DNA of 64,000 bases from assembly GCA_048882045.1 (NCBI GenBank), contig JBHLRZ010000008.1, positions 48,906-112,905 on the forward strand, read 5' to 3'. Origin of the DNA: Candidatus Thorarchaeota archaeon. Its GTDB lineage: Archaea > Asgardarchaeota > Thorarchaeia > Thorarchaeales > Thorarchaeaceae. Made by a program: the position numbers and the translations under genes. Below, in pieces: positions 15,854 through 46,723 of this stretch; within the stretch, counting starts at the first letter, position 1, and each line of letters begins with the position of its first letter. Below the pieces are notes generated by a model. The model had not been told where the DNA came from. It searched no databases and saw nothing but the letters and a program-made list of their open reading frames with translations.

Positions 15854-15900
15854 ACTCACGGACCCAAACTGCCAAATGGGTTTATAGTCAATTGAAATGC

Positions 15901-16689
15901 ATGTATACTCGACGATACATGGATATAGAAGAGACCTCTCTGAAGTCCCCTATCGGTATTATCGGACTCCCTGGAATTGCCAACGTCGGTAAGGTCGCTA
16001 TAGAAACTCTTACCTATGTTCTAGATGCTCAACATGTAGTAGACTTCTTCAGTGATGATTTGCCACCTCGGGTAATTGTACGAAAAGGGATATCCCACTG
16101 TCCGAAGTCCACAATTCATTTGTATAGAGCAGCTCCCGATGAGCCTCATGATCTCTTTCTCCTTACAGCTGATTTTCAACCAGCATCTGGAAAAGGAGTG
16201 TTCGAGTATGCTGATTATGTAGGTAGCGAGTTTGCCAAGTTTGGCGTCAAAGAACTCTACGCATTAGCTGCGTATGAACAAGGATATTCCGAGTATTTCG
16301 AACAATTCCCATCACCTCCACGAATCTTTACGTCTGCTAGCTCTGAAGATCTATTGGAGAGAATAACCAACTCGGAAGGAATGGTCAAGATTGAAGAGGG
16401 GGCAATTGTAGGAGCAAATGGGATTATTCCCGCATGGGCTGCATCTGTCTACAGTATGGAAGGAGTTTGTCTTCTCGGAGAAACCATTGGAGTGATTAAA
16501 GCAGACTACAGGGCTGCACGTATTGTACTTGAGAAGCTAGCAAATCTTGTTGGTATCAAGGCACATTTTGACATCATTGATACAGAAGTTGAGAAAGTCG
16601 TGGAGTTTGTAAAATGGGCTATGGATGAAATTGTACAGAAAGGCTCATCCAATGACACTGAGAATCCTGCCGACCGGTACATCGGCTAA
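15901..16689 (+). CDS. PAC2-family proteasome assembly chaperone
   Basis: GLPGIANVGK, IVGANG, CLLGET, DYRAARIVLE, C-terminal YIG. Confidence 0.85.
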   Translation: MYTRRYMDIEETSLKSPIGIIGLPGIANVGKVAIETLTYVLDAQHVVDFFSDDLPPRVIVRKGISHCPKSTIHLYRAAPDEPHDLFLLTADFQPASGKGVFEYADYVGSEFAKFGVKELYALAAYEQGYSEYFEQFPSPPRIFTSASSEDLLERITNSEGMVKIEEGAIVGANGIIPAWAASVYSMEGVCLLGETIGVIKADYRAARIVLEKLANLVGIKAHFDIIDTEVEKVVEFVKWAMDEIVQKGSSNDTENPADRYIG

Positions 16690-24917: not shown

Positions 24918-25460
24918 GTGAAGCTAGTCGATCTGGCTCGGGAGTCAGTTAAGGTTCTACAGGAGAGAGGGGAGGAAGGAATCCGAAGTGACATTCTAGC
25001 TGAAACCCTAGATACCCCGAAACGACGTGTATATGACATAATCGCAGTATTGAAAGCTCTTGGACAAGTCACTACAACGCGGAAATTCGATGGGACCATT
25101 GTAACCTGGGTCGATATGACTAAGGACTATGTACCTCGTCAAGCTCATGATGACCTGAAAGTCGTGATGGACCAGGAGAGTAGTGAACGTAAGAAACTCC
25201 AAGTGCAGGTTGCTGAGCTCAAAGAGCAGGTTCGTATTTCCAAGTCAAAACTACGACGAGAGACTCAAGCTGTAGAAACCTCAGACAAGACAGAGTTCAA
25301 TACGACTCAGATAAGAGTCCGAGCACTCTCAAGCAACGGAGTGAAGCGTGTTGAACATTCTGGAATAGAAGTCCTTATTGAAACTCACGAACCAGGAATG
25401 GTCGTTGATCCCGAAGAGAGAAAGGTCGATGAACAGGAAGCTATCATCAAAAACCTGTAA
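24918..25460 (+). CDS. E2F/DP-family winged-helix transcription factor with coiled coil
   Basis: LAETLDTPKRRVYDIIAVLKALGQV...IVTWV matches the E2F/DP RRxYD recognition helix; followed by a heptad coiled coil and a beta-rich C-terminus. Confidence 0.8.
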   Translation: MKLVDLARESVKVLQERGEEGIRSDILAETLDTPKRRVYDIIAVLKALGQVTTTRKFDGTIVTWVDMTKDYVPRQAHDDLKVVMDQESSERKKLQVQVAELKEQVRISKSKLRRETQAVETSDKTEFNTTQIRVRALSSNGVKRVEHSGIEVLIETHEPGMVVDPEERKVDEQEAIIKNL

Positions 25461-25942: not shown

Positions 25943-27085
25943 TTGGAGAGGATTGGGCTGGCCTCCACCAAACTCGACATAGCATTTGTAGTAGACACAA
26001 CGGGTTCCATGAAGGACGATATTCAAGCAGTCAGGAATAGTCTCTTTGATATTGTCGAACATATCACTAAGAAGACTGAAGGTCTTGAGATTCGGTTCGG
26101 AGTCGTTTCATACCGCGACCATCCACCTCAAGATAGGTCCTACGTCACGAAAGTCTTCGACTTTTCAGAGAACATCAAGAGGGTGCACAAACTCATATCC
26201 TCTTTGAATCCATCTGAGGGTGGTGACACTCCTGAGGCTGTGGCAGATGGGCTCTTTGATGCTCGTACCAAACTCTCGTGGGAAACCGATGCATACAAGG
26301 TCTTACTCTTGGTAGGTGATGCTCCTCCTCATGGAAGAAAATACAACAGCATTGGTGATGATTATTTCCCTGAAGGCTGTCCGAAGGGGCATGACTCAAT
26401 CGAAGAAGTGCAGCAGTTCCGAAGGGATTATGGGAGTACAATGTTTATCTTCGTCTGTGGATGCAACCCTCTGGTAGAGGAGTCATTCAGAAACATTGCC
26501 TCCTCTGTTGAAGAAGGCAAGTACTACTCTTTGTTAGAAGCTCATGAGCTTCCTGAGGCTATCATAGGGATCCTTGAAGGAGTTAGTGACCTCATTGAGG
26601 CTGATAGGAGAGTCCTCTCCTATTACGAAGCCAATGATGGCGTCTTTGATATGGGTGAGGCTGCTTCAAATCTTTCACTTGAGCTGAGAGCGTTGAAAAC
26701 CAGTCTATCTCGATTACTCGAGCTAGGACGAATTTCTCGATGGCCAAAAGGAAAACCACTTTCAACCTCTTCCACCGACCTAGCAATTGAACTTGGAGCT
26801 GTACCAAACAATATCGTTGCAGGAAAAGCCTTCAATTATTCAATTCGAGTGAAGAATCCTGGTGCAACAACAGTTGGCATTAGGGTAATCGCTTCTCTTG
26901 TTACATCTGATGGTGTATCCGAGGTCACAAATGAACATCATGAGATAAGTTCGAAGTCCGACCGAATTCTCGAGCTGAACTTGATACCTATGACTGACAC
27001 GAAAGGAAAGGCTAGACTACGTGTCGAAGTCTTTTATGGGTCCCGATCTGTTGCTACGGAAATTTACGACACACGAATCTTTTGA
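25943..27085 (+). CDS. vWA domain protein + wHTH + C-terminal Ig-like domain
   Basis: MIDAS DTTGSM, YRDH, GGDTPEAV, GDAPPHG; HTH (MGEAASNLSL...LSRLLELGRI); beta sandwich (YSIRVKNPG...LRVEVFY). Confidence 0.85.
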   Translation: MERIGLASTKLDIAFVVDTTGSMKDDIQAVRNSLFDIVEHITKKTEGLEIRFGVVSYRDHPPQDRSYVTKVFDFSENIKRVHKLISSLNPSEGGDTPEAVADGLFDARTKLSWETDAYKVLLLVGDAPPHGRKYNSIGDDYFPEGCPKGHDSIEEVQQFRRDYGSTMFIFVCGCNPLVEESFRNIASSVEEGKYYSLLEAHELPEAIIGILEGVSDLIEADRRVLSYYEANDGVFDMGEAASNLSLELRALKTSLSRLLELGRISRWPKGKPLSTSSTDLAIELGAVPNNIVAGKAFNYSIRVKNPGATTVGIRVIASLVTSDGVSEVTNEHHEISSKSDRILELNLIPMTDTKGKARLRVEVFYGSRSVATEIYDTRIF

Positions 27086-27098
27086 TGGAGGATACCAG

Positions 27099-28223
27099 TT
27101 GAAACTGCATGTACGAAGAGGACGGAACCAACAAGGTCTGTCTTTTCTTTCATCAGACGTGTCTTCTGGTATTTTTGAAATGAAACTCGATGAGAGGCGA
27201 GTAATCCTTGATGTCCGGTCATCAGAGAAGGTACCTTCTGGTACAGTGATTATTGATTCTCGCATTTCTGATCTTTTCGGTATACCTGATGATAGTGAGG
27301 TTTTCCTTAATCCAGTGTCCAATAAACAACCATCCTGTACTGAGGTCCATCTGGGAGTAGTATCGACTCGAGGCTTAGATAACGAGAAAGTCGCCCGTGC
27401 AATGTCCAAAAGAATAGATGATTTTCGAGAGTACCTCGAGGGTCTGATTATCTTTGAAGGACAGTCTTTTACAATTGAGGATTTCGGAATCAACTTGTAT
27501 GTCTTCTCTTTGAATCCTAAAGATTCCTCAACAGGTTCTGCACAAATCACATGGGATCAGCTTCTGAAAATCCATCTTGCTCCTATGGATTCTCGTCCAT
27601 TCAACCTCTGCATACTCGTTGAAACTGCAGCTGCTTCTCAGATTGTTGATGTAGCAACCCATGATGGACAGATTTCTCGTCTTCAAGCCATACGGTATGC
27701 AATCTCAACATTGGAACAAAAACTGACTTTGCAAAAAGACATGTTGTTTTCTGGATTTGCATTCTCTGATGAAATAGTCATATTCAGAACATTTGATTCT
27801 CAGACCGGTGAAGAAACAGGAGTGTCTACTTTTCATTCTCCTTCACTATTGAGATCATTTGGCGAGTGGATTACCGAATTCGCTTCAGGAAACGAAAAAT
27901 CTCCCTCTAATCCTGGAGAGGCTCTCAAACAGGGACTGGCCATAGCCTCCTCTCATACAGAAATAAATGGACTACAAACTGCCATTTTGTTTTTCTCCAG
28001 CGGGGTGTATTCAGCAGGCCAAAATCCTGTTAAGATTGCACGAACAGTGGGTAATTCTGAAAAGCTGGTATTATTCGCAATTTCTATGGGATCTGGCTCA
28101 GTCACTGACCTCATGGAAGCAGTTGCAGAAGAGGGAGGTGGTGCATTTATCCACATTGACAGAGATGAGAAGACTGAAACTATTGTTGAAACTATTGAAA
28201 AGACACTCTTCAGTAAGAGGTGA
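27099..28223 (+). CDS. CDC48-N-like domain + degenerate vWA domain protein
   Basis: GTVIIDSRISDLFGIPDDSEVFL (double-psi barrel-like); LEGLIIFEGQ; vWA with ETAAAS in place of DxSxS and FSSG in place of TDG; TTG start after GGAGG. Confidence 0.7.
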   Translation: MKLHVRRGRNQQGLSFLSSDVSSGIFEMKLDERRVILDVRSSEKVPSGTVIIDSRISDLFGIPDDSEVFLNPVSNKQPSCTEVHLGVVSTRGLDNEKVARAMSKRIDDFREYLEGLIIFEGQSFTIEDFGINLYVFSLNPKDSSTGSAQITWDQLLKIHLAPMDSRPFNLCILVETAAASQIVDVATHDGQISRLQAIRYAISTLEQKLTLQKDMLFSGFAFSDEIVIFRTFDSQTGEETGVSTFHSPSLLRSFGEWITEFASGNEKSPSNPGEALKQGLAIASSHTEINGLQTAILFFSSGVYSAGQNPVKIARTVGNSEKLVLFAISMGSGSVTDLMEAVAEEGGGAFIHIDRDEKTETIVETIEKTLFSKR

Positions 28224-29365: not shown

Positions 29366-29623
29366 ATGGCTGACGACTATTCAGAGATGATTAGAAAATT
29401 GGAAACTCAAGTTCGTGAACTAGAGATGATTCAGCAGCGAGCCTCATCTCTTGAAGCAATGATTGAGATGAGTTCGGATTCCCTAGACCTCCAAGACATT
29501 ATTTCCAGAATTAACAGAGTTCAAGATCTAGTTGACAACATCGAGATTGAAGTGGATAAACTAGAGATGGGTGTTTCATCTATCGAGCATGTTGGCTTTC
29601 GTCTCAGGACTGGAGGTCAGTAG
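29366..29623 (+). CDS. Small coiled-coil protein
   Basis: 85 aa, almost continuous heptad pattern; GGGGTGA SD. Confidence 0.65.
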   Translation: MADDYSEMIRKLETQVRELEMIQQRASSLEAMIEMSSDSLDLQDIISRINRVQDLVDNIEIEVDKLEMGVSSIEHVGFRLRTGGQ

Positions 29624-32261
29624 TTCTTGAAACAAGATTGTCAATGAGATCAAGGATGTAGCCAGTGAATGTATGAGATGAGAAGCTCTCGACAGGGATC
29701 AGATTGGAGTTGAGTCCTTTCAAGAGTCTGAGGTTTGATGTCTGATTTCCATTCTTACCAAGTGTCAACACATCCAATCTGTATCGGTCATGCTTGGATA
29801 TGGCGCTTAGGAATGAAACGTGTTCCTCATCATAAGTCCCAACACTATTACTCAAGACGAGAGCGACAGTTGGTCTTTCTGGACCAAAGTCTTCCAAATA
29901 CTCGGCGATTGAACGATAAGCTCCAGCCATGCTCTCATAGCCTTCAACTTCGTCTGAAGTATCGATTATCGAATAGATCAATGAAATAAGCACTTCTTCA
30001 GATTTTAGGTCATCATAAAACTCGACATAGGACTGAACTTCCTTCCCCCTCTGAATTGAGAACTTTTCAGGAATTTCATTGAAAGTTACGAGTGCAAGCC
30101 TACCTTCAGTTCTGTTATGAATGAGGATGTTGACTATCATTAAGGCCGCCAGAGCTGCTATTTGCGATCTGGATGCTGTCTTCTTTATACTGTCGAGGAA
30201 AGCTTCGACCTCGGGAACCAACTTGATCAGAGGATTCAATTGCGTTTTAGCCGCATGAATGGTCTTGAGGTTCACATCTTTCGTCTTCATTTTCATGCTT
30301 TTTGAAATACATAGTACTACATTGATATCTTTGAAGGCTTGCTTCGGTTTGAAGTCTACACCCAAGTCTGACAATCTTCCAACCTGACCGGGTTGTAGTT
30401 GTGGTTTTGAGTACTTCACACCCATAGCAATTGGATTATCCTGTCCTCCGATGAATAGTCTTGTGTCGATTCCAATCAGTACTCCATTTATGGATTCACG
30501 AATCCCCTTTTCATGTAAATGCATGAACGATGACAATTCCGAGTTACTAGTCACTTGAGGTGAATAGTACGAAAGTACCACTTCCTTTAGATCTGTTATC
30601 TCCCCATCGTATCGTACTAGATTCACTATAGTCGAATTTTTAAAACCAAACAGTAAAGCGTCTGATTCAGAAACAACAATCGACCGCTCTCCACACTTCG
30701 GATGTTGTCTGGCAACACCCGCACACCATTGCCCGGTGTTAATATCCAGTGCTAGAATATGATCTTCATCAGTTACCTCTAGTGCTTTCATATCTTCTTC
30801 ACACATGAAAAATACGCCTGATTCGGACTTGGCGATTTCTACTCCAAAGTGTAGCGCTGATAGTATCTCTGAAGGTCTTTCTATGTGGAGACACGAAAGT
30901 AGAGCCTTATCAAATCTGGTCAAATGAGCTGGAGAACCGAAAATGGGTCCTTCCAACTTCGCGTTTGCACGAATCAATGTGGCAAGAAGAATTCCATCTC
31001 TTGAAAGAAGACTCTCGGAAAATGCATTCTTCCATCCAGATACCAACACAGAGCCATTCTTCTCGAGTAGTAATGCCAGACTCAAAGCAGTGGGTGAGGT
31101 TGGTCCTTTCAGAGTTAGGACACAACTATCGAGATAGACTTTTCCTCCATCATTTTCGATCATATGGTCGATAGACACAATTCCAAGCATCTTTCTAGCA
31201 TCTAATATCTGAAGTATCCTAGCAAGTTCGTTCATTGCAGCCTTTCCTAAACTCTCCTCTGCTACAACTGATGTAGTGTTCTCTTCATATTGAAGAAACG
31301 CTGGACGAGGTGGAAAGATCGAAAGGATGTTTCCGCCCAAAATCCGCTGTATTTCCTCAGGTTCTGCAGCCAAATTTCTGCTGAGTAGATAACTGAAGAC
31401 CTCTGATATGCTGTCTCCAAACTGAGTTTCAGGATATGCTGACGAGAAAATCAGTCGTTTTGACCAATCTGCATCGCTTTGTGTTTTCCGCATGTGCCGA
31501 ACGAGAGCTGACAAAGAAGAAATTGTTGCACCAGAAGTTAGGACTTTAGAACCTGGAACATCTAAAAGTCGAGTTATGTTCTGTCCCCACTCCTTTTGAT
31601 TTTTGGCTCCAAGTACCAAACGTGGAGTCTTCAGACCTGCTTGCTTGAGGAGGACCAACCATTCTAAAAGGGGGTCAAGTTCCTCACTGGGCCCAAGTTC
31701 TATGAATAAAGGTTTGTCTGTCTTGATGTAGTTCAACAAATCTTTCCTATTTGGCCCTTTTAGTGCAACTGGAAGGTCAATGGTTCGTAGCACACATCCC
31801 CAACCAACTTCAGTTCTTCTGCCACTTCTCATGTCCTGTAAATGATACACTCGAGGGCTCTGAGGCGGCTGTGTTGCCCACCTGTATACAGAATTTGCAT
31901 TAGCGTCCTGTTGCAGTGTAGGGAGAACTGTTTCTCCAAGATTAATCAACGGTTTAATCACGAGATAGTCTGCAATCCAACTTGACTCTGATGATGCAGT
32001 TGTCCCATGATAGAACTCACTAAGTAATCTTGGTACCCGAAGATAGTCATATGCCCTCCTGGGAAGATATCTGAAAGCTCCTGGATAGAGTGAGGCGAAA
32101 TCGTTGAGCTGGTTCTCAACCATTCTATAGAACGAATAAACCCGGTCTGGATCAAAGGTTCGAATATCCTGTCCAGCCCGTACAATACCGAGTTGAAGGG
32201 ATGAATCAACAACAACGAAGCGGTGGATCTCATTTGCTTCGATGTCTTCAACTACAATCAT
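29604..32261 (-). CDS. Fusion protein: inactive amidohydrolase + CDC48-N-like + degenerate vWA
   Basis: The N-half aligns by eye with 32366-33847 (VDSSLQLG vs VDAHHHMG; QRILGGN vs QRVLGGN). The C-half aligns with 33916-35205 (NVVLCISKSMKMKTKDV vs NAVLCIDTSGSMKTTDV). Confidence 0.75.
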   Translation of the reverse strand: MIVVEDIEANEIHRFVVVDSSLQLGIVRAGQDIRTFDPDRVYSFYRMVENQLNDFASLYPGAFRYLPRRAYDYLRVPRLLSEFYHGTTASSESSWIADYLVIKPLINLGETVLPTLQQDANANSVYRWATQPPQSPRVYHLQDMRSGRRTEVGWGCVLRTIDLPVALKGPNRKDLLNYIKTDKPLFIELGPSEELDPLLEWLVLLKQAGLKTPRLVLGAKNQKEWGQNITRLLDVPGSKVLTSGATISSLSALVRHMRKTQSDADWSKRLIFSSAYPETQFGDSISEVFSYLLSRNLAAEPEEIQRILGGNILSIFPPRPAFLQYEENTTSVVAEESLGKAAMNELARILQILDARKMLGIVSIDHMIENDGGKVYLDSCVLTLKGPTSPTALSLALLLEKNGSVLVSGWKNAFSESLLSRDGILLATLIRANAKLEGPIFGSPAHLTRFDKALLSCLHIERPSEILSALHFGVEIAKSESGVFFMCEEDMKALEVTDEDHILALDINTGQWCAGVARQHPKCGERSIVVSESDALLFGFKNSTIVNLVRYDGEITDLKEVVLSYYSPQVTSNSELSSFMHLHEKGIRESINGVLIGIDTRLFIGGQDNPIAMGVKYSKPQLQPGQVGRLSDLGVDFKPKQAFKDINVVLCISKSMKMKTKDVNLKTIHAAKTQLNPLIKLVPEVEAFLDSIKKTASRSQIAALAALMIVNILIHNRTEGRLALVTFNEIPEKFSIQRGKEVQSYVEFYDDLKSEEVLISLIYSIIDTSDEVEGYESMAGAYRSIAEYLEDFGPERPTVALVLSNSVGTYDEEHVSFLSAISKHDRYRLDVLTLGKNGNQTSNLRLLKGLNSNLIPVESFSSHTFTGYILDLIDNLVSRTTDLQS

Positions 32262-32365
32262 CCAGTAGGTCTCCAGAGTGTAATGATAGATTGACAACAG
32301 CATCCGATATATGCCTAGTGCCGATGAAGCAATAGTTTATCACGAATCTCGAATGACCATCAACC

Positions 32366-33847
32366 ATGCTCGTAGTGCGGGCTGTTGAAGATCAACCAGG
32401 TCGAGGCATCAAGAAAGGAGATGAGTTCAGACTTTATATCGTAGATGCTCATCATCATATGGGTCAGGAGAAGGGTCACAGGAACACACCAGCTGGAGCA
32501 TACGATTTCTATGCATCTTTGTGGTTCGAGATTCAAAAACAGACAAAGATTTTGCTAGAAGAGGATTCTCTGTTATTTGAACCAGTCAATATTCAGGCCC
32601 CTGAACTTGCCTCCCGTATCTTTCAAAGCCGTGATAGTTGGAAACGTCTAGATCACGGTTGGCTTGTTGACAGGACTGTCGCTTTTCCGTACACTGACGA
32701 TTACTCCTCTCCCGAAGCGCCAGGTGATGCATCATTCAAAGTTTCAAATGACAAGATTGCATCATGGACAACAAGAACACCTCACTCCACTAGATTGATT
32801 GGTTTCTCTCGTGTGAATCCACTTGAGGGATCCATTGCCATTGATGAGCTTGACAGAAGTGTAAACGAACTAGGATTGAGAGGTCTCAAACTGCATCCTC
32901 TCGCGCAGCTCTTCATAGATGAGATTGAGGATGATGCCTCCAGGAATATAGTGAAACGAGCTGGAGAGATTGGCATTCCCATCATATTTGACACTAGAAA
33001 CATCAAGACAGTTGTGAAAATCAAGCGGCTTGTGGATTCAATGAGAAACGATCCACAGTGCGGTGATGCTTTGAAGGGGCTGAAAGTGATTATCGCTCAT
33101 TGTGGAATGTCCCCCGGTGATACACGTCTTTTCGAATCTTTAAAGGATCCTATAATCTACGGCGAAACCTCAACTCTGCATGACAGAGATATTCCAGTAT
33201 TGTTTGAAACAGCTAGTGGAAGGTTAGACAAATGGTCTGAGAAATTTCTCTTCGGGACAGATTTTAGTTTCCTCTCGGTTCAGGCACTAGACATAATCAT
33301 GTATATGCTCTCTCGGGACTTTCCAGGGACTTTAGGAGATGCACAGAGAGTTTTAGGTGGGAATGCCTTGTCCTTGCTTCGAAAACCATTCAGGACATCC
33401 ATTGGGAAGTCAGGAGCACCTCGGGAATATTTAATCCGTGATGATTCATGGTTGACACAACGTGGGCTCGAAGATGTCCTGATTGGTCTTTTGAAAAAAG
33501 GTGATTGGAACTTAGGCTCGCTCGACCCAATGATACCACCACTTGGTACTTGGCCGGAGCCACTCCCTGTAAAGGCTGGGGGTACGATTGGCGTCAGCCA
33601 AGAATCATATGTCTTGACGATGATATCTAAGGATAAGACAAAGGAATTCCACATATGGATCAGGAGGCGGTCAGGCAATCTACTCAGTTGTAGTGTCTTG
33701 GCTACACAGGGAATGGTCCAACTTGATACCGTTGAGAATGCCTCTCAAAAGCTAAGCTCTGTTTTGATGCGTGCAGTCGCAGACTATTCAACGATCCTTG
33801 ATTCATCAGATGAACTACAATCTTGTGTTCTGGAACACCTTTCATAG
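32366..33847 (+). CDS. Amidohydrolase_2-family TIM-barrel metallohydrolase with C-terminal extension
   Basis: DAHHH, GLRGLKLHP, IIAHCG, FLFGTDF, LGGNA. Confidence 0.85.
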   Translation: MLVVRAVEDQPGRGIKKGDEFRLYIVDAHHHMGQEKGHRNTPAGAYDFYASLWFEIQKQTKILLEEDSLLFEPVNIQAPELASRIFQSRDSWKRLDHGWLVDRTVAFPYTDDYSSPEAPGDASFKVSNDKIASWTTRTPHSTRLIGFSRVNPLEGSIAIDELDRSVNELGLRGLKLHPLAQLFIDEIEDDASRNIVKRAGEIGIPIIFDTRNIKTVVKIKRLVDSMRNDPQCGDALKGLKVIIAHCGMSPGDTRLFESLKDPIIYGETSTLHDRDIPVLFETASGRLDKWSEKFLFGTDFSFLSVQALDIIMYMLSRDFPGTLGDAQRVLGGNALSLLRKPFRTSIGKSGAPREYLIRDDSWLTQRGLEDVLIGLLKKGDWNLGSLDPMIPPLGTWPEPLPVKAGGTIGVSQESYVLTMISKDKTKEFHIWIRRRSGNLLSCSVLATQGMVQLDTVENASQKLSSVLMRAVADYSTILDSSDELQSCVLEHLS

Positions 33848-33863
33848 CGCGTACTAACAATTC

Positions 33864-33870
33864 TTTATAA
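33864..33870 (+). promoter_or_regulatory. TATA box for the CDC48N-vWA gene
   Basis: TTTATAA about 30 nt upstream of a perfect GAGGAGG SD at 33901. Confidence 0.55.
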
Positions 33871-33915
33871 CTTCAGAAACAGATTGACTTGTATAACACT
33901 GAGGAGGCGAAAGCC

Positions 33916-35205
33916 ATCACCAAGCAAATTACCTTGGAGATTATTGACGGTGGAGACCTTAGGGGATTTGCCAATATTCATCCTAAGACCGCTAAGAAAC
34001 TTGATGCAGATATTGGATCTATTGTGATATTTGAAGATCCTCAAAGCAGTTTCTGGGGTGCGGCTGAGATCAGAAAGAGTAACGAAATTGGAGAGGACCA
34101 GATAGTTATTGACACACTTGTCCTAGAAGCCTCTTTACTTATGGAAGGCGACGAAGTTGAAGTGACACTATACAATGAAGACATGATTGCCTTAGAATTC
34201 ATCGAATTCGGTCTCAAACCATTAGCTGAGGACGCAAATACAGAAGATCTCGTATCTCGAGCGGCAGAGAGGGTGAAGTCCCTTGAGAACATAATCGGTG
34301 GCCGGTTAGTCTATCCAGGGATGTCTTTCAACTGGCCCGAGCTCGCTGTGAAGGTTGATATCATCAACACAAAACCTCCATTGGCAGGCAAGAGCTTTGC
34401 AAAGCTTGCATTTGAAGCATTACGAGAACGTACTGGATACCAGTTCAAGACAGTTGGTGTTGCCTCCCCCTTTAATGCTGTCCTGTGCATTGACACAAGT
34501 GGTTCTATGAAGACAACCGATGTCCCTGTACAGGATATTGCTCACGCTCGCGAAGGTCTAAAGGATCTTGCTGGTGACAGTCCTGAGGTCCATGCATTCC
34601 TCAACAGATTTGAAGAGGGTCGGAATGTCAGCAGAGCCGAAGCCGCAGCAATGGCTGTGTTACTCTACCTCGCAGAGAAGGTTGGTAGGGGTTATGGCGA
34701 GAAGGTCGGTGTAATTACTTTTGAAAAAGAAGTAAGCGAGATGACATTTCTTAACTCTGAAACTGGTGATGTGCAACCTTTTGTTGAATGTACAGGTCGG
34801 GAGAAAGCTCTCGGCCTTCAGATTATCAGTACTCACGTAGTGGACAAAGTAGAGGAAGGTGGAACACTCACTGATATGGGCTCTGCACTTTCAAAGGCAC
34901 ATGAGATAATGGAAGAGTTTGGTGATCCAAACAAACCCACTATGCTTATTATGCTCACTGATGGGATGACCACATCAGGCCCTCCACCATTGAAGGTATT
35001 AAAGGACAAATTCACTGATAGAAGTAAGCTTGTTATCTACACAATTGGTCTTGGTGAAAGGAGTGAGATAGACGAAGAGCTAATGCTAGCAATAGCAACC
35101 TATGGAAATGGAAGCTATCGCCATGTCGATAACATGAGAGATCTACTAGAGTGGTATGGTAAGTTGGCTGGTGAATTTGCTGTTGTTATAAGAGGAGCTG
35201 AGTGA
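33916..35205 (+). CDS. CDC48-N-like domain + vWA (intact MIDAS) protein
   Basis: GFANIHPKTAKKLDADIGSIV...QIVIDTLV...EGDEVEV double-psi barrel pattern; DTSGS, TDMGSAL, LTDG, YTIGLG. Start uncertain (TTG 33889, ATC 33916 or TTG 33934). Confidence 0.85.
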   Translation: MTKQITLEIIDGGDLRGFANIHPKTAKKLDADIGSIVIFEDPQSSFWGAAEIRKSNEIGEDQIVIDTLVLEASLLMEGDEVEVTLYNEDMIALEFIEFGLKPLAEDANTEDLVSRAAERVKSLENIIGGRLVYPGMSFNWPELAVKVDIINTKPPLAGKSFAKLAFEALRERTGYQFKTVGVASPFNAVLCIDTSGSMKTTDVPVQDIAHAREGLKDLAGDSPEVHAFLNRFEEGRNVSRAEAAAMAVLLYLAEKVGRGYGEKVGVITFEKEVSEMTFLNSETGDVQPFVECTGREKALGLQIISTHVVDKVEEGGTLTDMGSALSKAHEIMEEFGDPNKPTMLIMLTDGMTTSGPPPLKVLKDKFTDRSKLVIYTIGLGERSEIDEELMLAIATYGNGSYRHVDNMRDLLEWYGKLAGEFAVVIRGAE

Positions 35206-37374: not shown

Positions 37375-38070
37375 TCATTGTTGATCTGAAACTGAGATGT
37401 CATCCGGTCTTCTGACAAGCATTGTCATGCCAGTGATTCCGACTACGGCTACCATCTCTCCAGCCTTGATAGGTGGACCAGTAGTCTTTGCCCACCAAAT
37501 TTCTGCTCCAGTCTTCACTTTGCCCTTGGGATTTATGTCAGTGGTGGCAACAAGATCCGCGTACTTGAACTGCATATAAGTTGGCCACTTGTCATAATCT
37601 CTAAGGAATGCAAAATACAGGAGCATGAGACAGAAGACACTGCCTGCCATTATGTACACTGTAAGCTGTCTCGTGGGATCAATCATCACGGAAAGAAATA
37701 TTGCGACACCATATATTGGGAACAACTTCAACGAAACCTTGGCATCTATGAAGCCGCCTTCTACGAAGCTACTCCCTCCGGTAAACATTGTGAACATTAG
37801 ATACATGAGTGCAAAGATGATAATCAACATCCAGTCTTGGAATGCAAAACCTGTCAACCAAACCTGGAAGACAAAAAGTATGAGGATGAGCGGAACAGTT
37901 ACCTGTGCCATAGCTTTGCCAGTTGCTGGTTCAAGGGTTAGAACCAGTAGTGTAAGAAGCACTCCTAAAAGTATTAGACCAACGAATGGATTTATGAGAA
38001 GAAATGGCATGACCATGCTCAACGCTGAAAACATGATCATGATTACCAAAATCTTGATCCACGCGTCCAT
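37375..38070 (-). CDS. NfeD-family membrane protein (C-terminal OB fold)
   Basis: TM region then INPKGKVKTGAEIWWA...IKAGEMVAVVGITGMTMLVR; adjacent to the SPFH gene. Confidence 0.85.
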   Translation of the reverse strand: MDAWIKILVIMIMFSALSMVMPFLLINPFVGLILLGVLLTLLVLTLEPATGKAMAQVTVPLILILFVFQVWLTGFAFQDWMLIIIFALMYLMFTMFTGGSSFVEGGFIDAKVSLKLFPIYGVAIFLSVMIDPTRQLTVYIMAGSVFCLMLLYFAFLRDYDKWPTYMQFKYADLVATTDINPKGKVKTGAEIWWAKTTGPPIKAGEMVAVVGITGMTMLVRRPDDISVSDQQ

Positions 38071-38082
38071 CTTTTTTCCATC

Positions 38083-38922
38083 CTACTCCTCGGCCATTCC
38101 CTTGTCCTTTGGAACTTTTAACCCGCCCGTTCCAGCTGACATCGCAGCTGCTACACCTGTCGTGACTCCAACCTCTGGAATATTGGTTGGAACCATGATA
38201 ATCAGGTTAGCGTTCTTTGATATCTCTTGCATAATGTTCCATGTACGAAGTACGAATCCTACCTGGGATTCCTCATACCTCTTCGCTGCCTTTAGCATGT
38301 TCTCAGCAGCCTGAAGCTCTGCCTGAGCAAGGATAATTCTAGCTCTGCCCTCTCTGTCAGCTTGTGCTTCTCTACTCATAGCGTCTTGCAATGCAGCTGG
38401 AATGACTACATCACGTATCTCCACACTAGTAACCTTCACTCCCCAGTGCTCTGTCTTCTCATCGATGAGTTCTTGCAGATGTTCTGCGATTTTGTCCCTC
38501 TCGGAGAGAAGTTCATCGAGTGTTACCTTACCGGTGGTCTCTCTCAGTGTTGTCTGTGCACCCAGTTCTACAGCTACTGTGTACCTCTCGACGCTCAGGA
38601 TAGCCTTCTCAACATCAATGACTCTAAAGTACATGACCGCATCAACGACAACAGGTACGTTATCCTTTGTCAAAGACCTCTCTGTCTTGAAGGCGTATGT
38701 CAATAACCTCAATGAAACTTTCATAGCAATCTTATCGAGAATGGGAGTGACCCAAATCACACCAGGTCCCCGAATGTGTTTGAATTTTCCGAGTCTGAGC
38801 ACAGCAACGCGCTCCCACTCCTTGAGGACTTTAATCCCGCTCGCAACGAACATCAGTACGAAGAATGCGAGTACTACGATCAACATTGTCCATAAGTATG
38901 AATCTAATCCGAATAGTTGCAA
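38083..38922 (-). CDS. SPFH/stomatin (slipin) family protein
   Basis: WERVAVLRLG, LTKDNV, AQTTLR, WGVKVTSVEIRDV, AMSREAQADRE. Confidence 0.93.
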   Translation of the reverse strand: MQLFGLDSYLWTMLIVVLAFFVLMFVASGIKVLKEWERVAVLRLGKFKHIRGPGVIWVTPILDKIAMKVSLRLLTYAFKTERSLTKDNVPVVVDAVMYFRVIDVEKAILSVERYTVAVELGAQTTLRETTGKVTLDELLSERDKIAEHLQELIDEKTEHWGVKVTSVEIRDVVIPAALQDAMSREAQADREGRARIILAQAELQAAENMLKAAKRYEESQVGFVLRTWNIMQEISKNANLIIMVPTNIPEVGVTTGVAAAMSAGTGGLKVPKDKGMAEE

Positions 38923-42631: not shown

Positions 42632-45600
42632 TTAGTAGACAGTGAACTGTCTTCTAATTAGATTGATCGCTCTTGCTGGAAGTGGGCGACCGCCTTGAAC
42701 CATTACCGCATCGACGTAGTATCCAGTTACAACATCAATGGGTGGAGTCATCCATCTGATCTTTATGATGTTGTGAGTAGACTTAGGATCCGGAATTGGC
42801 AGAGTGAATTCTTTCACAAGTTCTCTAACGGTCATTATCCGAATACTCAAAGCCAAGTCTTCAATGTCTGCTCGATTACTTTCGACTGACGCAATAATGT
42901 CAATTGGTGTCAGTCTTGCTACAAGACCAGGTATCTCTTCTCCGGACTCATCCCGAACTGAAAAACTCACTTTGAATAGGGATTCGTCAATTGCTTTGAT
43001 TTTGAATCTCTGTCTGTTCTCACACGCTCTCCTACCACATCTCAGTATTGCACGTAGATGGGCAGTACTCATTTCAGCACTCATAGGGACTCGGAAAGGT
43101 ATTGGCAGAATGCGTTGCTGCCCTGGATCGAGATCTATCTCACGAGTAACGAGTAACCTGTTGCCTCCGATTGATTCGAGTTCTATTGAGAGAACACACT
43201 TTGATGCCTTCTCGAGATTGCTCGTAATCTGAACAGATGGCTGCACAATTTCATCTGGAGCAGCAAAACCTGGGAGTCCAATAAACTCGAGACTTGCAAT
43301 ATCTTCTTGAGGTCCACCAACAAGAATGATTTCCGCAGTTCTACTATCTACTTCAATTCCTGCATAACTTAGTTTGGCTATCAGAGTTACACTCCTCGGA
43401 TCAATTTCAGAACGTGGTGCTGGAATGACTATTGGACCAAAGGCAAGTGAGAGATTCTTGCTCTGTTTAACAGACTGACTCAATACACGTTGTTCCTCTC
43501 CATCGGGATATTTGAAGGACATAGTCAGAACTGCTGGTTCTCCAACCTCTGTGTTCCTCCTAACCCTCAACCATCCTGACACCTTTCCACCTACATGCGA
43601 CCTCTTTGGTAAGCGGAGTGAGTCAATGTTTACTCTCGTGGTTATCTGATCTATTCTGAACCTGTCTGATTCTGTTGATCCAATGTTTTGACCCTTGTCC
43701 ACCAGTGTTGCTTTGAGAATTCCAACACGATCAGCTGGACTCTCTGTAGTCAACGTTGGGATCTTCCACCTGAACCTTGTTTCCCCTCCCACGAATTCAT
43801 GGTGCAAGAATTCCTCTATGAGCTGTGACCTACCTGAATCGCTTTTGAACTCAAGCGTCAACCTTGCATCCTCCGTACCAGACTTCTTCCCAAGGTTACT
43901 AACAATAATTGCCCCAGAAATCAGATCTCCGGGAACGTACATGTTCTTGAACTCACAGTCCAATATGACCTGTGGACCTCGCTTGACAAATCCAATGTAG
44001 AATGGTTTTGACATTGTTTCGGCTATTTCAGACCCATCCTCATTGAGAAGTTTCAACTGAAGAACACATCTCTCCACACCGGTTGACGCATCAGGTGGAA
44101 TCAGTATTGGTGTGAACTGGGACTGATCCAAGTCAGTTGATTCGCCACTCTCAATCTCAAGGATATCCTCAGAAGTTGCCAACACCTCGCTTATGCTTGG
44201 TGACATTACACTTACTTGAGAACGAACCTTTGCTTTTAGCGGATAGTTTGTCTCAATCTGTCCCGTGAACATAACGGGAGTCTTTCCGTCAGCAAACTGG
44301 GTTGTTGTCCCTGGTTTGATTGATGCTCTCATCCAATACATATTGATAGTGCTTGAGAGAGTGATGACTCTTCCAACAAAGCCCACCTTTGCAATAATGT
44401 TGTAGGCTGCAATATTCTTCCTTGTAGCAAACGAAACGTCTGAAACATGAATCTCTCCATTCTCAATGGTTGATATGGAAATGACCTCAGTTTCAACAAG
44501 ATTCCTTTCTGAATCCTCTATCGTGTATGTGATTGCAATATCTTCCAACCTACGTCCAGTGAAATTCCTCACCAATATACTGAACTGAACCTCTTGTCCA
44601 GCAAATACCCTCTCCATATCAGTCACTATCTCTGGTTCGAGACCTTTCCACCAACAGATCCATGTTGGAAGATGAGGGGTTCCTTCAATAGGATCGTATA
44701 ACCAGTTCGTACTACACTCTCTCGTCACTTCTGCTAGCTTCTTCAGCAAAACAACCATGTTGTTGTCTGATTTTGCATAGACTTCTAGCTGGAAATCTGA
44801 ACCTGTGGTTCTCGGATTTGAGAACTCACTTCCAAATACAGATACAAGCAAGGCCTGCATGAATGGATTCTCAATGATATTGAGTTCCTCAAGTTCATCT
44901 TTTATCATGTATAACATAGAAGCAACTGCGTCACCCATGAAGCGGTTCTTCTTCTCACTCAATTCACCATTGTCAGATATTTGACTGTTGTATATCCTCA
45001 CATACTCGGACTCTTTGGCTGCACTACTCGGTCTAAACGGTCCCCACAGTCCAGCAGCAATGGCAGATTCTCTATTGGCTGCTAACGATTTTGGACCAAC
45101 ATCTGGGATTGTGACTCCACTGTACACCATCTTCTTCGCCTTTAGAGCGAGTGCTTGAAGTATTAGTGCCAAACCCATCCTTCTGGGAATCGAGAGCTGT
45201 GTGTCAAAGACTCGGATCTCGATTGTTCCATAATCTGTAAACGGATACATGTCTACCATTCGAGCGTAGCTTCGATTGACATGTCGTGCGAAAGCCTCTC
45301 TGTCAGTACCACTGAGATATGGTATCAATTCAAACTCATTTGTAGGTCCCATCTGAGTAGTGTTTCTAAACAGTCTAATGGATCTCTTGCAGCGAGGAGC
45401 TCGGACATTACCTTCTGCAGATACTTCCACCTCGTCGGTGGGTCTCTTGTTCTCAAACGGTGAATTGACTGATAACGCAATGAGATGAGGTAGGAAGTTT
45501 CTGATCATGTTGTAGACAGATATCTTCGTTGTTTCGTCCACGCTGGTATCGAGAATATGATGATGTTCACCAAAAGAGAGATTCCGTAAATACTCCTGAG

Positions 45601-46069
45601 TTGGATTCAAACCTGTTGAAACCAGAATGGCTTGGGCGTCTGTGGGAAGGGATTCCTGAGAGATTGCTATGAGCGTCTGAATCCACCAAGCAAGTTCTTC
45701 AAGTGTCGTACAGGGTGGTGTGGCAACTTCCAGAATCCAGGTAAGGCTTGTTACATTGGGGTCGTGTCCTAGGAGTGTGTATTCTTTAGGCTCACCGGTC
45801 GGATCCTCATATGCGGCAACTATTCTCGACCCTCTTTCTCCCTCTTCAGTCTGAGCCGACTGCTTGTACTTTCTTTTAACTGACTCTACATTTGATGTCC
45901 GAATTCTTTTATCAAGAAGGCCTTTCGCACTTGAAACTATTTTGTCAAACACCTGAAGGATGTTTTCTCCTCGAATCCAAGTACCATCTTTCTTAATGAC
46001 CTGTAGTTCGACCTCAATACCATGGGGAAATGGCAGCTGCATCTCTTTGTGCATAGTGGTCGATTCCAT
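42632..46069 (-). CDS. GCS2/YbdK-type carboxylate-amine ligase fused to about five Ig-like beta-sandwich domains
   Basis: GIEVELQV, LEVATPPC, FGEHHH, PHLIALSVNSPF, GTIEIRVFD in aa 1-470; then repeated G(Q/D)xV...VRN beta-rich modules. Confidence 0.8.
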   Translation of the reverse strand: MESTTMHKEMQLPFPHGIEVELQVIKKDGTWIRGENILQVFDKIVSSAKGLLDKRIRTSNVESVKRKYKQSAQTEEGERGSRIVAAYEDPTGEPKEYTLLGHDPNVTSLTWILEVATPPCTTLEELAWWIQTLIAISQESLPTDAQAILVSTGLNPTQEYLRNLSFGEHHHILDTSVDETTKISVYNMIRNFLPHLIALSVNSPFENKRPTDEVEVSAEGNVRAPRCKRSIRLFRNTTQMGPTNEFELIPYLSGTDREAFARHVNRSYARMVDMYPFTDYGTIEIRVFDTQLSIPRRMGLALILQALALKAKKMVYSGVTIPDVGPKSLAANRESAIAAGLWGPFRPSSAAKESEYVRIYNSQISDNGELSEKKNRFMGDAVASMLYMIKDELEELNIIENPFMQALLVSVFGSEFSNPRTTGSDFQLEVYAKSDNNMVVLLKKLAEVTRECSTNWLYDPIEGTPHLPTWICWWKGLEPEIVTDMERVFAGQEVQFSILVRNFTGRRLEDIAITYTIEDSERNLVETEVISISTIENGEIHVSDVSFATRKNIAAYNIIAKVGFVGRVITLSSTINMYWMRASIKPGTTTQFADGKTPVMFTGQIETNYPLKAKVRSQVSVMSPSISEVLATSEDILEIESGESTDLDQSQFTPILIPPDASTGVERCVLQLKLLNEDGSEIAETMSKPFYIGFVKRGPQVILDCEFKNMYVPGDLISGAIIVSNLGKKSGTEDARLTLEFKSDSGRSQLIEEFLHHEFVGGETRFRWKIPTLTTESPADRVGILKATLVDKGQNIGSTESDRFRIDQITTRVNIDSLRLPKRSHVGGKVSGWLRVRRNTEVGEPAVLTMSFKYPDGEEQRVLSQSVKQSKNLSLAFGPIVIPAPRSEIDPRSVTLIAKLSYAGIEVDSRTAEIILVGGPQEDIASLEFIGLPGFAAPDEIVQPSVQITSNLEKASKCVLSIELESIGGNRLLVTREIDLDPGQQRILPIPFRVPMSAEMSTAHLRAILRCGRRACENRQRFKIKAIDESLFKVSFSVRDESGEEIPGLVARLTPIDIIASVESNRADIEDLALSIRIMTVRELVKEFTLPIPDPKSTHNIIKIRWMTPPIDVVTGYYVDAVMVQGGRPLPARAINLIRRQFTVY

Positions 46070-46078
46070 GGTTAGCAC

Positions 46079-46723
46079 CTAGAACCCTGCAATGATATTC
46101 AGAATTCGTATAAGAAGCGGAATGTTTTCAGACAAGCCGTGTGAGATGGTTAGTTCAAGTATCAGTTGATCCGATCTTTTTTCAAACGTTCTGATTAATT
46201 CGGAAACGAGTGGCCCGCCACCAAATTCTCCAGCATCTTCAAGAACAACAACTCCCAAGGACTCTATCATCTTCCTTAGTAATGTTACATCGCCCTTCAA
46301 GTATCTCGTTCCTAGGATGGCGACGTTTTCTCTCTCAATTGGTCGAGGGAACTCTGACCATCGAAGGTTTACTATATATTCAACATGCTTCTTTTGATCC
46401 TCAGCAGTCACCATGTTAACAATACTTGCAACTGTTGATTGCGATTCAGTTCTGTCACTAGATTTAATCAGTGTGGGAATACCTCGTCCTTTCAGGTTGC
46501 TAAGAACACGCTCAAGCGGATCCCCCTGTATTAGGCCCGAAAGGACACATACGACTCCTCGTGAAGCTCCTTGTACAAAGACACCACTTGAAGAGAAATC
46601 ACTTACCCGCATACTTCTCTCAATAGGTTCCAGTGCAGCATTCAAGTCCGAAAGTCTTTCCAGCAGAACATTGAGAACACTCTCTGCTCTCTCAAGTTCA
46701 TGCAAAAGACTGGATCTACTCAT
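46079..46723 (-). CDS. Hypothetical protein, possibly degenerate N-formylglutamate amidohydrolase-like fold
   Basis: N-terminal coiled coil; C-terminal EFGGGPLV...ILELTISHGL; directly precedes the ligase gene. Confidence 0.55.
   Translation of the reverse strand: MSRSSLLHELERAESVLNVLLERLSDLNAALEPIERSMRVSDFSSSGVFVQGASRGVVCVLSGLIQGDPLERVLSNLKGRGIPTLIKSSDRTESQSTVASIVNMVTAEDQKKHVEYIVNLRWSEFPRPIERENVAILGTRYLKGDVTLLRKMIESLGVVVLEDAGEFGGGPLVSELIRTFEKRSDQLILELTISHGLSENIPLLIRILNIIAGF

Follow-up and report, generated by a model that had tools for sequence, protein, structure and literature searches.

What does a cell keep when it keeps a long, intact gene that reads like two of its neighbours joined end to end, but without the metal-site residues of either? 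This question is raised by a locus of Candidatus Thorarchaeota archaeon (GenBank assembly GCA_048882045.1, contig JBHLRZ010000008.1, positions 48,906 to 112,905), and the whole stretch of 64,000 nucleotides that was analysed is hereafter called the window. Here a minus-strand gene of 885 codons (the fusion) lies head to head with two plus-strand genes that encode an amidohydrolase and a protein joining a Cdc48/NSF N-domain-like module to a vWA domain (the Cdc48N-vWA protein); we refer to these two genes as the active pair. An earlier note, made from the letters of the window, had described the fusion as a catalytically dead copy of the pair that arose by an old inverted duplication and serves its active relatives as a scaffold or allosteric partner. 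We find that the fusion encodes a conserved protein paralogous to both neighbours, the amidohydrolase and the Cdc48N-vWA protein, in one chain, and that the residues of both metal sites are gone.

The fusion is homologous, in order, to its two neighbours

Compared by BLASTP, the fusion matched the amidohydrolase over 51 aa only (E 4e-5) and the Cdc48N-vWA protein over 207 aa at 29% identity (E 7e-16). Profile alignments were built from 37 fusion homologues, 24 amidohydrolases and 21 vWA proteins and compared with hhalign, which aligned fusion columns 12-458 with amidohydrolase columns 11-493 (probability 97.8%, E 7e-13, 398 columns) and fusion columns 486-852 with Cdc48N-vWA columns 22-398 (probability 99.4%, E 5e-22, 361 columns). 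Homology to the two neighbours is thus supported in part by BLASTP and as a whole by profile-profile comparison. In Rosetta-stone terms, both halves of the fusion are homologous, in order, to two separate genes that co-occur with it.

As negative controls, a canonical vWA protein and a 379-aa protein from the same locus were compared with the fusion, and neither matched (E 0.05-0.1). Generic vWA similarity was rejected as the source of the second match: the canonical vWA protein reached E 0.1 against the fusion, and the Cdc48N-vWA profile, run over the whole source genome, found two genes only, the Cdc48N-vWA gene itself and the fusion.

When the fusion profile was searched against 1.84 billion cluster representatives, it returned only 123 relatives. 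Among these are two active single-domain amidohydrolases with HTH and GTD motifs, P0422 and P0428, which match profile positions 1-435 and 15-391, nearly the whole N-terminal half. The free amidohydrolase matches Pfam PF04909 (Amidohydro_2; E 7e-12), and the Cdc48N-vWA protein matches Pfam VWA_2 (E 1.6e-9) and, weakly, CDC48_N (E 0.075). No Pfam or NCBIfam model recognises the fusion (Pfam at E 0.1 or below), and a diverged relative, P0364, scored 20.3 bits against the PF04909 gathering cut-off of 26.4. Matches of the fusion profile to TAL effectors in the PDB held no passing stretch and were taken as spurious. Literature searches combining Thorarchaeota with vWA and amidohydrolase, and DEPDC5/GATOR1 with Asgard, found no description of the locus.

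Both metal sites are lost and the predicted folds appear to be kept

In the amidohydrolase family, H29, H30, H31, H177, H245 and D299 are invariant (24 sequences). Residues D202, S204, S206, T328 and D358 of the metal-ion-dependent adhesion site (MIDAS) of the vWA protein are likewise invariant, in 21 of 21 alignment rows and in all 16 sequences from fetched loci. A census of 56 fusions found none with His at both the H29 and H31 positions and none with Asp at the D299 position (the strand-8 Asp), where A, S, N, G, R or L stands instead; the first MIDAS Asp was retained in one fusion, and the other MIDAS positions were variable. In the window's fusion, SSLQ replaces AHHH, SSA replaces GTD, and the MIDAS residues D, S, S, T, D have become S, S, K, E, N. 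Since the residues at the lost ligand sites vary among the 56 fusions, no new conserved residue took over there. Diverged fusions from other families retain remnants of the motifs (HxH in P0389; DxS in P0389 and P0396), and such remnants in deep-branching fusions fit a gradual, stepwise decay from an active ancestor.

Set beside known Amidohydro_2 proteins (PF04909; PDB 3cjp_A, 3nur_A), the N-terminal 320 residues of the fusion adopt the barrel and are homologous to a true PF04909 neighbour, but they lack the HxH, the further His residues and the strand-8 Asp, and the Pfam model does not detect them. Live and dead forms both differ from these proteins in carrying an extra C-terminal domain of ~140 aa, and even the live hydrolase is remote by sequence from the solved structures (best E 0.005). 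In the same way, the C-terminal 240 residues share the fold of MIDAS-bearing vWA domains (Rpn10, TFIIH p44/Ssl1, CMG2/ANTXR2), whereas the DxSxS...T...D residues are gone in the fusion and intact in its neighbour.

An AlphaFold model of the fusion was of good confidence (predicted local distance difference test, pLDDT, 89.2; predicted TM-score, pTM, 0.82). Residues 16-318 superposed on the amidohydrolase barrel 3cjp_A (Z 17.2, root-mean-square deviation 3.1, 218 aligned; VIA-align), residues 644-877 matched the vWA domains of CMG2, Rpn10 and TFIIH p44 (Z 16-17.7), and the segment between barrel and vWA domain resembled, in Foldseek, the N-terminal regions of p97, NSF and DEPDC5. The dead copy thus appears to retain all four predicted folds. 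The model of the free Cdc48N-vWA protein was of low confidence (pLDDT 62.6) and its matches were used at domain level only, with residues 13-191 matching the p97 N domain (Z 14) and residues 192-430 matching vWA domains (Z 15). Because both parts sit in one confidently packed chain in the fusion model, the hydrolase and the vWA protein, when encoded separately, probably interact in the geometry of the fusion.

The fusion is under strong purifying selection

Ratios of nonsynonymous to synonymous substitution (dN/dS) were taken as medians from codon alignments of 12 genomes of the window's genus. They were 0.074 for the whole fusion, 0.087 for the amidohydrolase and 0.021 for the vWA protein, and ranged from 0.08 to 0.11 across four segments of the fusion, the barrel half being lowest (0.08). 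The frame of the fusion is under strong purifying selection and, rough as these ratios are, neutral decay is excluded. A decaying pseudogene was accordingly rejected, given the low ratios in all four segments and frames that are intact in nearly all of ~70 genomes.

The clearest interrupted orthologue, in G152 (C3:785286-787926), is broken by several TGA/TAG codons and split into two matches; it may be either a real pseudogene or an assembly error. Several other fusion matches have one stop codon.

Much of the earlier note thus stands. The colinear match, first to the amidohydrolase and then to the Cdc48N-vWA protein, is borne out by the hhalign comparisons, which are significant over both halves; every motif pair that it cited sits in aligned columns; the loss of the amidohydrolase ligands and MIDAS Asp residues holds in the 56-sequence census, against neighbours that are invariant; and the dN/dS values exclude the neutral decay that would have refuted it.

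The most constrained of the three genes is the Cdc48N-vWA gene. Homologues found share 63-97% identity, and dN/dS falls to 0.013 in the vWA domain. This protein is unusually conserved for one of unknown function and is among the most conserved at the locus.

The duplication is older than the locus

We surveyed 300 genomes of the phylum, spanning 30 Asgard families, with a fusion profile search. The fusion was found in the window's family (f1; 70 of 76 genomes), its sister family (f2; one genome) and f7 (5 of 5), and fused forms were present in four of six f19 genomes and in the one f6 genome checked; in these three families beyond the window's and its sister, the fused genes are diverged and ~850-890 aa long. 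Of the 30 Asgard families sampled, five have fused dead forms and more have the split pair, among them f9, f22 and f27, where the single genome checked from each has the pair with no fusion detected. The amidohydrolase and Cdc48N-vWA genes are adjacent in five Asgard families.

Trees of each half placed the fusion halves in one clade that includes other families (Shimodaira-Hasegawa-like approximate likelihood ratio test 92 and 99). The C-half tree gathers all free proteins into a second clade; the N-half tree, when rooted on one long outgroup, does not unite the free hydrolases. In both trees the same distant families are present in the fusion clade and in the free-protein group, so the duplication predates the split of these families. 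As judged from the alignments and trees, the two-gene unit was duplicated in an ancestor of several Asgard families, and one copy was fused and lost the residues of both sites.

The old inverted duplication of the earlier note is therefore upheld in one part: a two-gene unit was duplicated, far earlier than the present locus took shape. The inverted, head-to-head layout, on the other hand, was seen only in the window's family (most loci) and in the one genome sampled from f2, a second family of the same taxonomic order. In other families 8-15 kb separate the fused gene from the pair, and in the two genomes that allow strands to be compared both are on one strand.

Events could have run the other way, with an active fused protein as the ancestor and the two neighbour genes derived from it by fission. 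The trees leave some room for this, being effectively unrooted with a long branch as sole outgroup (3.55 substitutions per site). The split pair, however, is in more families than the fusion, including the f9, f22 and f27 genomes; no fused form that keeps its sites was seen among the 123 relatives, and those diverged ones whose sequences were read are dead; and the deep fusions hold motif remnants only. Since the split pair is also in f9, f22 and f27 and no intact fused form was found, duplication followed by fusion and inactivation is more likely than fission, though the root is not proven, and we consider fission very improbable.

G006 (C2:255708-258459 and 344688-347155), from another Asgard family, has two separate hydrolase-vWA pairs, a fused dead copy and an additional lone Cdc48N-vWA gene. 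In G004, a 221-aa small-GTPase-like open reading frame (ORF) with a P-loop (GPSAGGKTT) lies at L050:5040-5705 (-), just downstream of a very diverged 840-aa fusion.

The fusion persists where the active pair is not found

Three genomes, G005, G016 and G055 (98, 95 and 97% complete), carry an intact fusion on contiguous contigs from which the flanking genes on both sides are gone. Profile searches of these whole genomes found neither the hydrolase nor the vWA protein. Two of the pair losses lie inside genera whose other members retain the pair, and are therefore independent events. The GCS2-type ligase described below was not found in G005 or G016, and G055 has only a shorter, diverged copy. 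Relative to the copies compared, the fusion without the pair evolved at rates of 1.10, 1.21 and 0.94, compared with 0.77-1.15 for control genes. Tree branch lengths had hinted at acceleration once the pair is gone, which was rejected on comparison with these controls. With no consistent rate change after pair loss, the constraint on the fusion is not visibly dependent on the pair, and a fusion kept where the pair is not found probably has a job that does not strictly need it.

These genomes bear most directly on the possibility that the fusion is an obligate partner, hetero-oligomerising with the hydrolase and the vWA protein to activate, scaffold or regulate them. Much at the locus would suit such a role: the fusion faces the pair across a shared intergenic region of 104 bp in most loci of the window's family and in one f2 genome, the two are found together in five families and within 15 kb even in distant ones, and live and dead barrels share a conserved stretch from the WS motif to QRILGGN but not the catalytic residues. 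Pairs of an enzyme and a dead paralogue of this kind are well known, as with the AdoMetDC prozyme of trypanosomes or Rpn8 beside Rpn11, and the fusion resembles them as a paralogue under selection that kept its fold, lost its catalytic residues and lies near an active relative. It differs from them in that two active centres are dead in one chain fused from a two-gene operon, and in that the dead copy outlives the active genes in some genomes. Against such a role, the fusion stayed intact after the pair was lost in G005, G016 and G055, two of these losses falling within pair-keeping genera, and its rate did not change consistently; the f9, f22 and f27 genomes checked, for their part, have the pair but no detected fusion. 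We therefore regard obligate partnership as rather unlikely. The scaffold or allosteric role proposed in the earlier note is weakened by the same fusion-only genomes and the lack of a consistent speed-up; a possible partner role for the dead copy is somewhat disfavoured, and the fusion probably has a role of its own. The other functional claim of that note, that the hydrolase and the Cdc48N-vWA protein work together, agrees with the adjacency of their genes in five Asgard families.

A role of its own could be catalytic or sensory, with the barrel having gained a new pocket for a ligand related to the substrate of the pair. This would account for the barrel half having both the lowest dN/dS of the four segments and most of the invariant residues, polar or aromatic ones (D19, R40, R68, Y71, W95, D98, R137 and Y276-P277-E278), and for the Asp before the lost HxH being invariant in 56 of 56 fusions. 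None of the canonical catalytic residues is kept, however, and no Pfam or NCBIfam model recognises the protein; a neofunctionalised enzyme or small-molecule sensor, as read from sequence, appears distinctly unlikely. We consider it most likely that the fused protein acts as a non-catalytic binding or scaffold protein. Its context is likely to be the conserved gene neighbourhood, which would place it with a HEAT-repeat protein and the SPFH/Band7-NfeD membrane scaffold genes. As a whole, the explanation that we favour, with moderate confidence, is a dead fused paralogue that is scaffold-like and does not strictly need the pair, the pair itself going with the GCS2 ligase. Several points weigh against it: with dS at ~1.4, near saturation, dN/dS is only approximate; the two middle His ligands were mapped through a stretch of low-confidence alignment; the polar residues just listed (all but W95) are invariant features of the fusion barrel's own, so that it may have a new ligand site or a new chemistry; and the link to HEAT and Band7 genes is one of gene neighbourhood only.

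Within the window's family, most loci in which Band7/NfeD genes were found have them 4-6 kb from the fusion. In f19, Band7 is the divergent neighbour of the diverged fusion, and in f7 it lies ~0.5 kb upstream on the opposite strand; the Band7/SPFH genes beside the diverged fusions of these two families are at L018:6350-7354 and L021:3987-4922.

The active pair probably goes with a GCS2-type ligase

In two distant families (L019, L023) the pair adjoins a homologue, ~1150-1190 aa long, of the window's GCS2-type ligase gene, and in a third (G040) a shorter form of the ligase stands directly before the hydrolase. The ligase is present in f1, f2, f6, f7, f9, f19, f22, f24, f27 and f28 and was not found in the other 20 families sampled, a distribution approximately the same as that of the families with the pair or the fusion. 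We infer that the active pair forms a set with an ATP-dependent amide ligase of the GCS2 type. The gene content suggests reversible amide chemistry, in which the ligase would make amide bonds, the hydrolase could break them, and a docking protein with a metal site would join in. Beside the ligase, both in the window (42632-46723, -) and at L023:7446-11538, is a gene for a 214-aa protein of unknown family; the ligase of the other locus is at L019:7441-11016.

A third paralogue and a resemblance to DEPDC5/Iml1

A 400-aa ORF upstream of the fusion is a third member of the Cdc48N-vWA family (hhalign probability 99.8%, E 8e-29, 360 columns). We found this paralogue in no family other than the window's, and several loci of that family lack it.

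The top Foldseek matches for the models of the fusion and the free vWA protein were DEPDC5/Iml1 chains (E 1.5e-11 and 1.6e-10), and for the free protein the TM-score, normalised by query length, was 0.40-0.42 with DEPDC5/Iml1 as against 0.25-0.30 with p97/NSF chains. In DEPDC5, the N-terminal domain (NTD) is NSF-N-like and the SABA domain is Sec23-like (PMC8534245). The locus proteins share with DEPDC5/Iml1 (Sea1; GATOR1/SEACIT) an ATPase-free layout in which an NSF/Cdc48-N-like domain precedes a vWA/Sec23-trunk-like one, but at 438 and 885 aa they lack the SHEN, DEP and C-terminal domains, their full length being otherwise accounted for. We take the predicted resemblance as one of layout, confined to the fold level.

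A stronger reading would make the Cdc48N-vWA proteins true archaeal relatives of the DEPDC5/Iml1 NTD-SABA unit, and the fusion a nutrient- or metabolite-sensing scaffold at SPFH/Band7 membranes with the dead barrel as its sensor. Sequence methods gave no link to GATOR1. Searched with a limit of E 10, Pfam IML1 (PF12257) matched nothing anywhere in the source genome, and PDB sequences searched by profile to the same limit yielded no DEPDC5 chain; Pfam NPR2 likewise matched nothing in the source genome. In the literature searched for DEPDC5 with Asgard archaea, only Liu et al. 2020 was found, who report NPRL2-like proteins, and only these, in most Thor metagenome-assembled genomes. We judge this reading improbable.

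Two neighbouring genes were also considered. The cobW-like GTPase was rejected as a Rag-type protein, as a protein atlas groups it with widespread, mostly bacterial GTPases. For the 379-aa neighbour the atlas yielded no usable match, and the protein showed a C-terminal coiled coil only, with no longin signal.

Gene layout at the locus

Features of the locus are collected in Table 1. Counted from the first ATG, the fusion ORF (29604-32303, -) encodes 899 aa. The ~120 fusion homologues are 873-923 aa long and begin at a MIVVED/MLVVED motif, which points to M15 (32261) as the probable start and to a length of 885 aa.

Table 1. Positions in the window of the fusion, its segments and the genes discussed with it.
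Feature	Position	Strand	Description
Fusion gene	29604..32261	-	885 aa plus stop; ORF open to 32303
Fusion residues 1-330	31272..32261	-	Amidohydrolase-like TIM barrel without metal ligands
Fusion residues 331-470	30852..31271	-	Counterpart of the amidohydrolase C-terminal alpha/beta domain (SIDHMI vs SLDPMI)
Fusion residues 471-640	30342..30851	-	Cdc48/NSF N-domain-like module
Fusion residues 641-885	29607..30341	-	vWA fold without MIDAS residues
Divergent intergenic region	32262..32365		104 bp; putative AT-rich TATA-like stretch facing each gene, from sequence only
Amidohydrolase, active-looking	32366..33847	+	493 aa; Amidohydro_2 barrel and family-specific C-terminal domain
Cdc48N-vWA protein	33889..35205	+	438 aa; MIDAS residues intact; very conserved
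Third Cdc48N-vWA paralogue	27021..28223	+	400-aa ORF; degraded MIDAS residues
GCS2-type carboxylate-amine ligase	42632..46078	-	1148 aa; Pfam GCS2, 24.5 bits vs cut-off 21
Band7/SPFH and NfeD region	37375-38922		~5 kb from the fusion

Across 16 loci of the family, the gene order, where complete, is cobW-like GTPase, E2F-like factor, vWA protein, 400-aa protein, 379-aa protein and fusion, followed by the hydrolase, the Cdc48N-vWA protein, a HEAT protein, an Rce1-like protease, NfeD and Band7; some of these genes are missing from several of the 16 loci. An 85-aa coiled-coil-like ORF (29366-29623, +) on the opposite strand shares 20 bases with the 3' end of the fusion gene, and coiled-coil ORFs of 155 and 177 aa stand directly before the amidohydrolase in G108 and G038. 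Eukaryote-type domains nearby include an E2F/DP winged-helix protein (24918-25460, +) and a PAC2-family protein (15892-16689, +), and the G038 locus has a weak gelsolin-repeat match, below the Pfam cut-off, at L019:2543-3424.

Implications

The locus is a clean natural case of an entire two-gene operon having been duplicated, joined into one gene and disabled at both metal sites, with the result retained over a very long time; the family is new to Pfam and NCBIfam models and to the literature searched. It predicts, in a form open to test, that the vWA protein and the hydrolase are binding partners. Few pseudoenzymes outlive their active relatives as the fusion does, and this speaks for a function of its own; were the Cdc48N-vWA proteins true relatives of DEPDC5/Iml1, the fusion would stand, within Asgard archaea, as a forerunner of GATOR1's scaffold part. 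The active pair and the amide ligase make up a gene set restricted to about one third of the Asgard families sampled; given its conserved vWA protein with a DEPDC5-like two-domain layout, this set is a candidate for Asgard-specific signalling or tagging biology.

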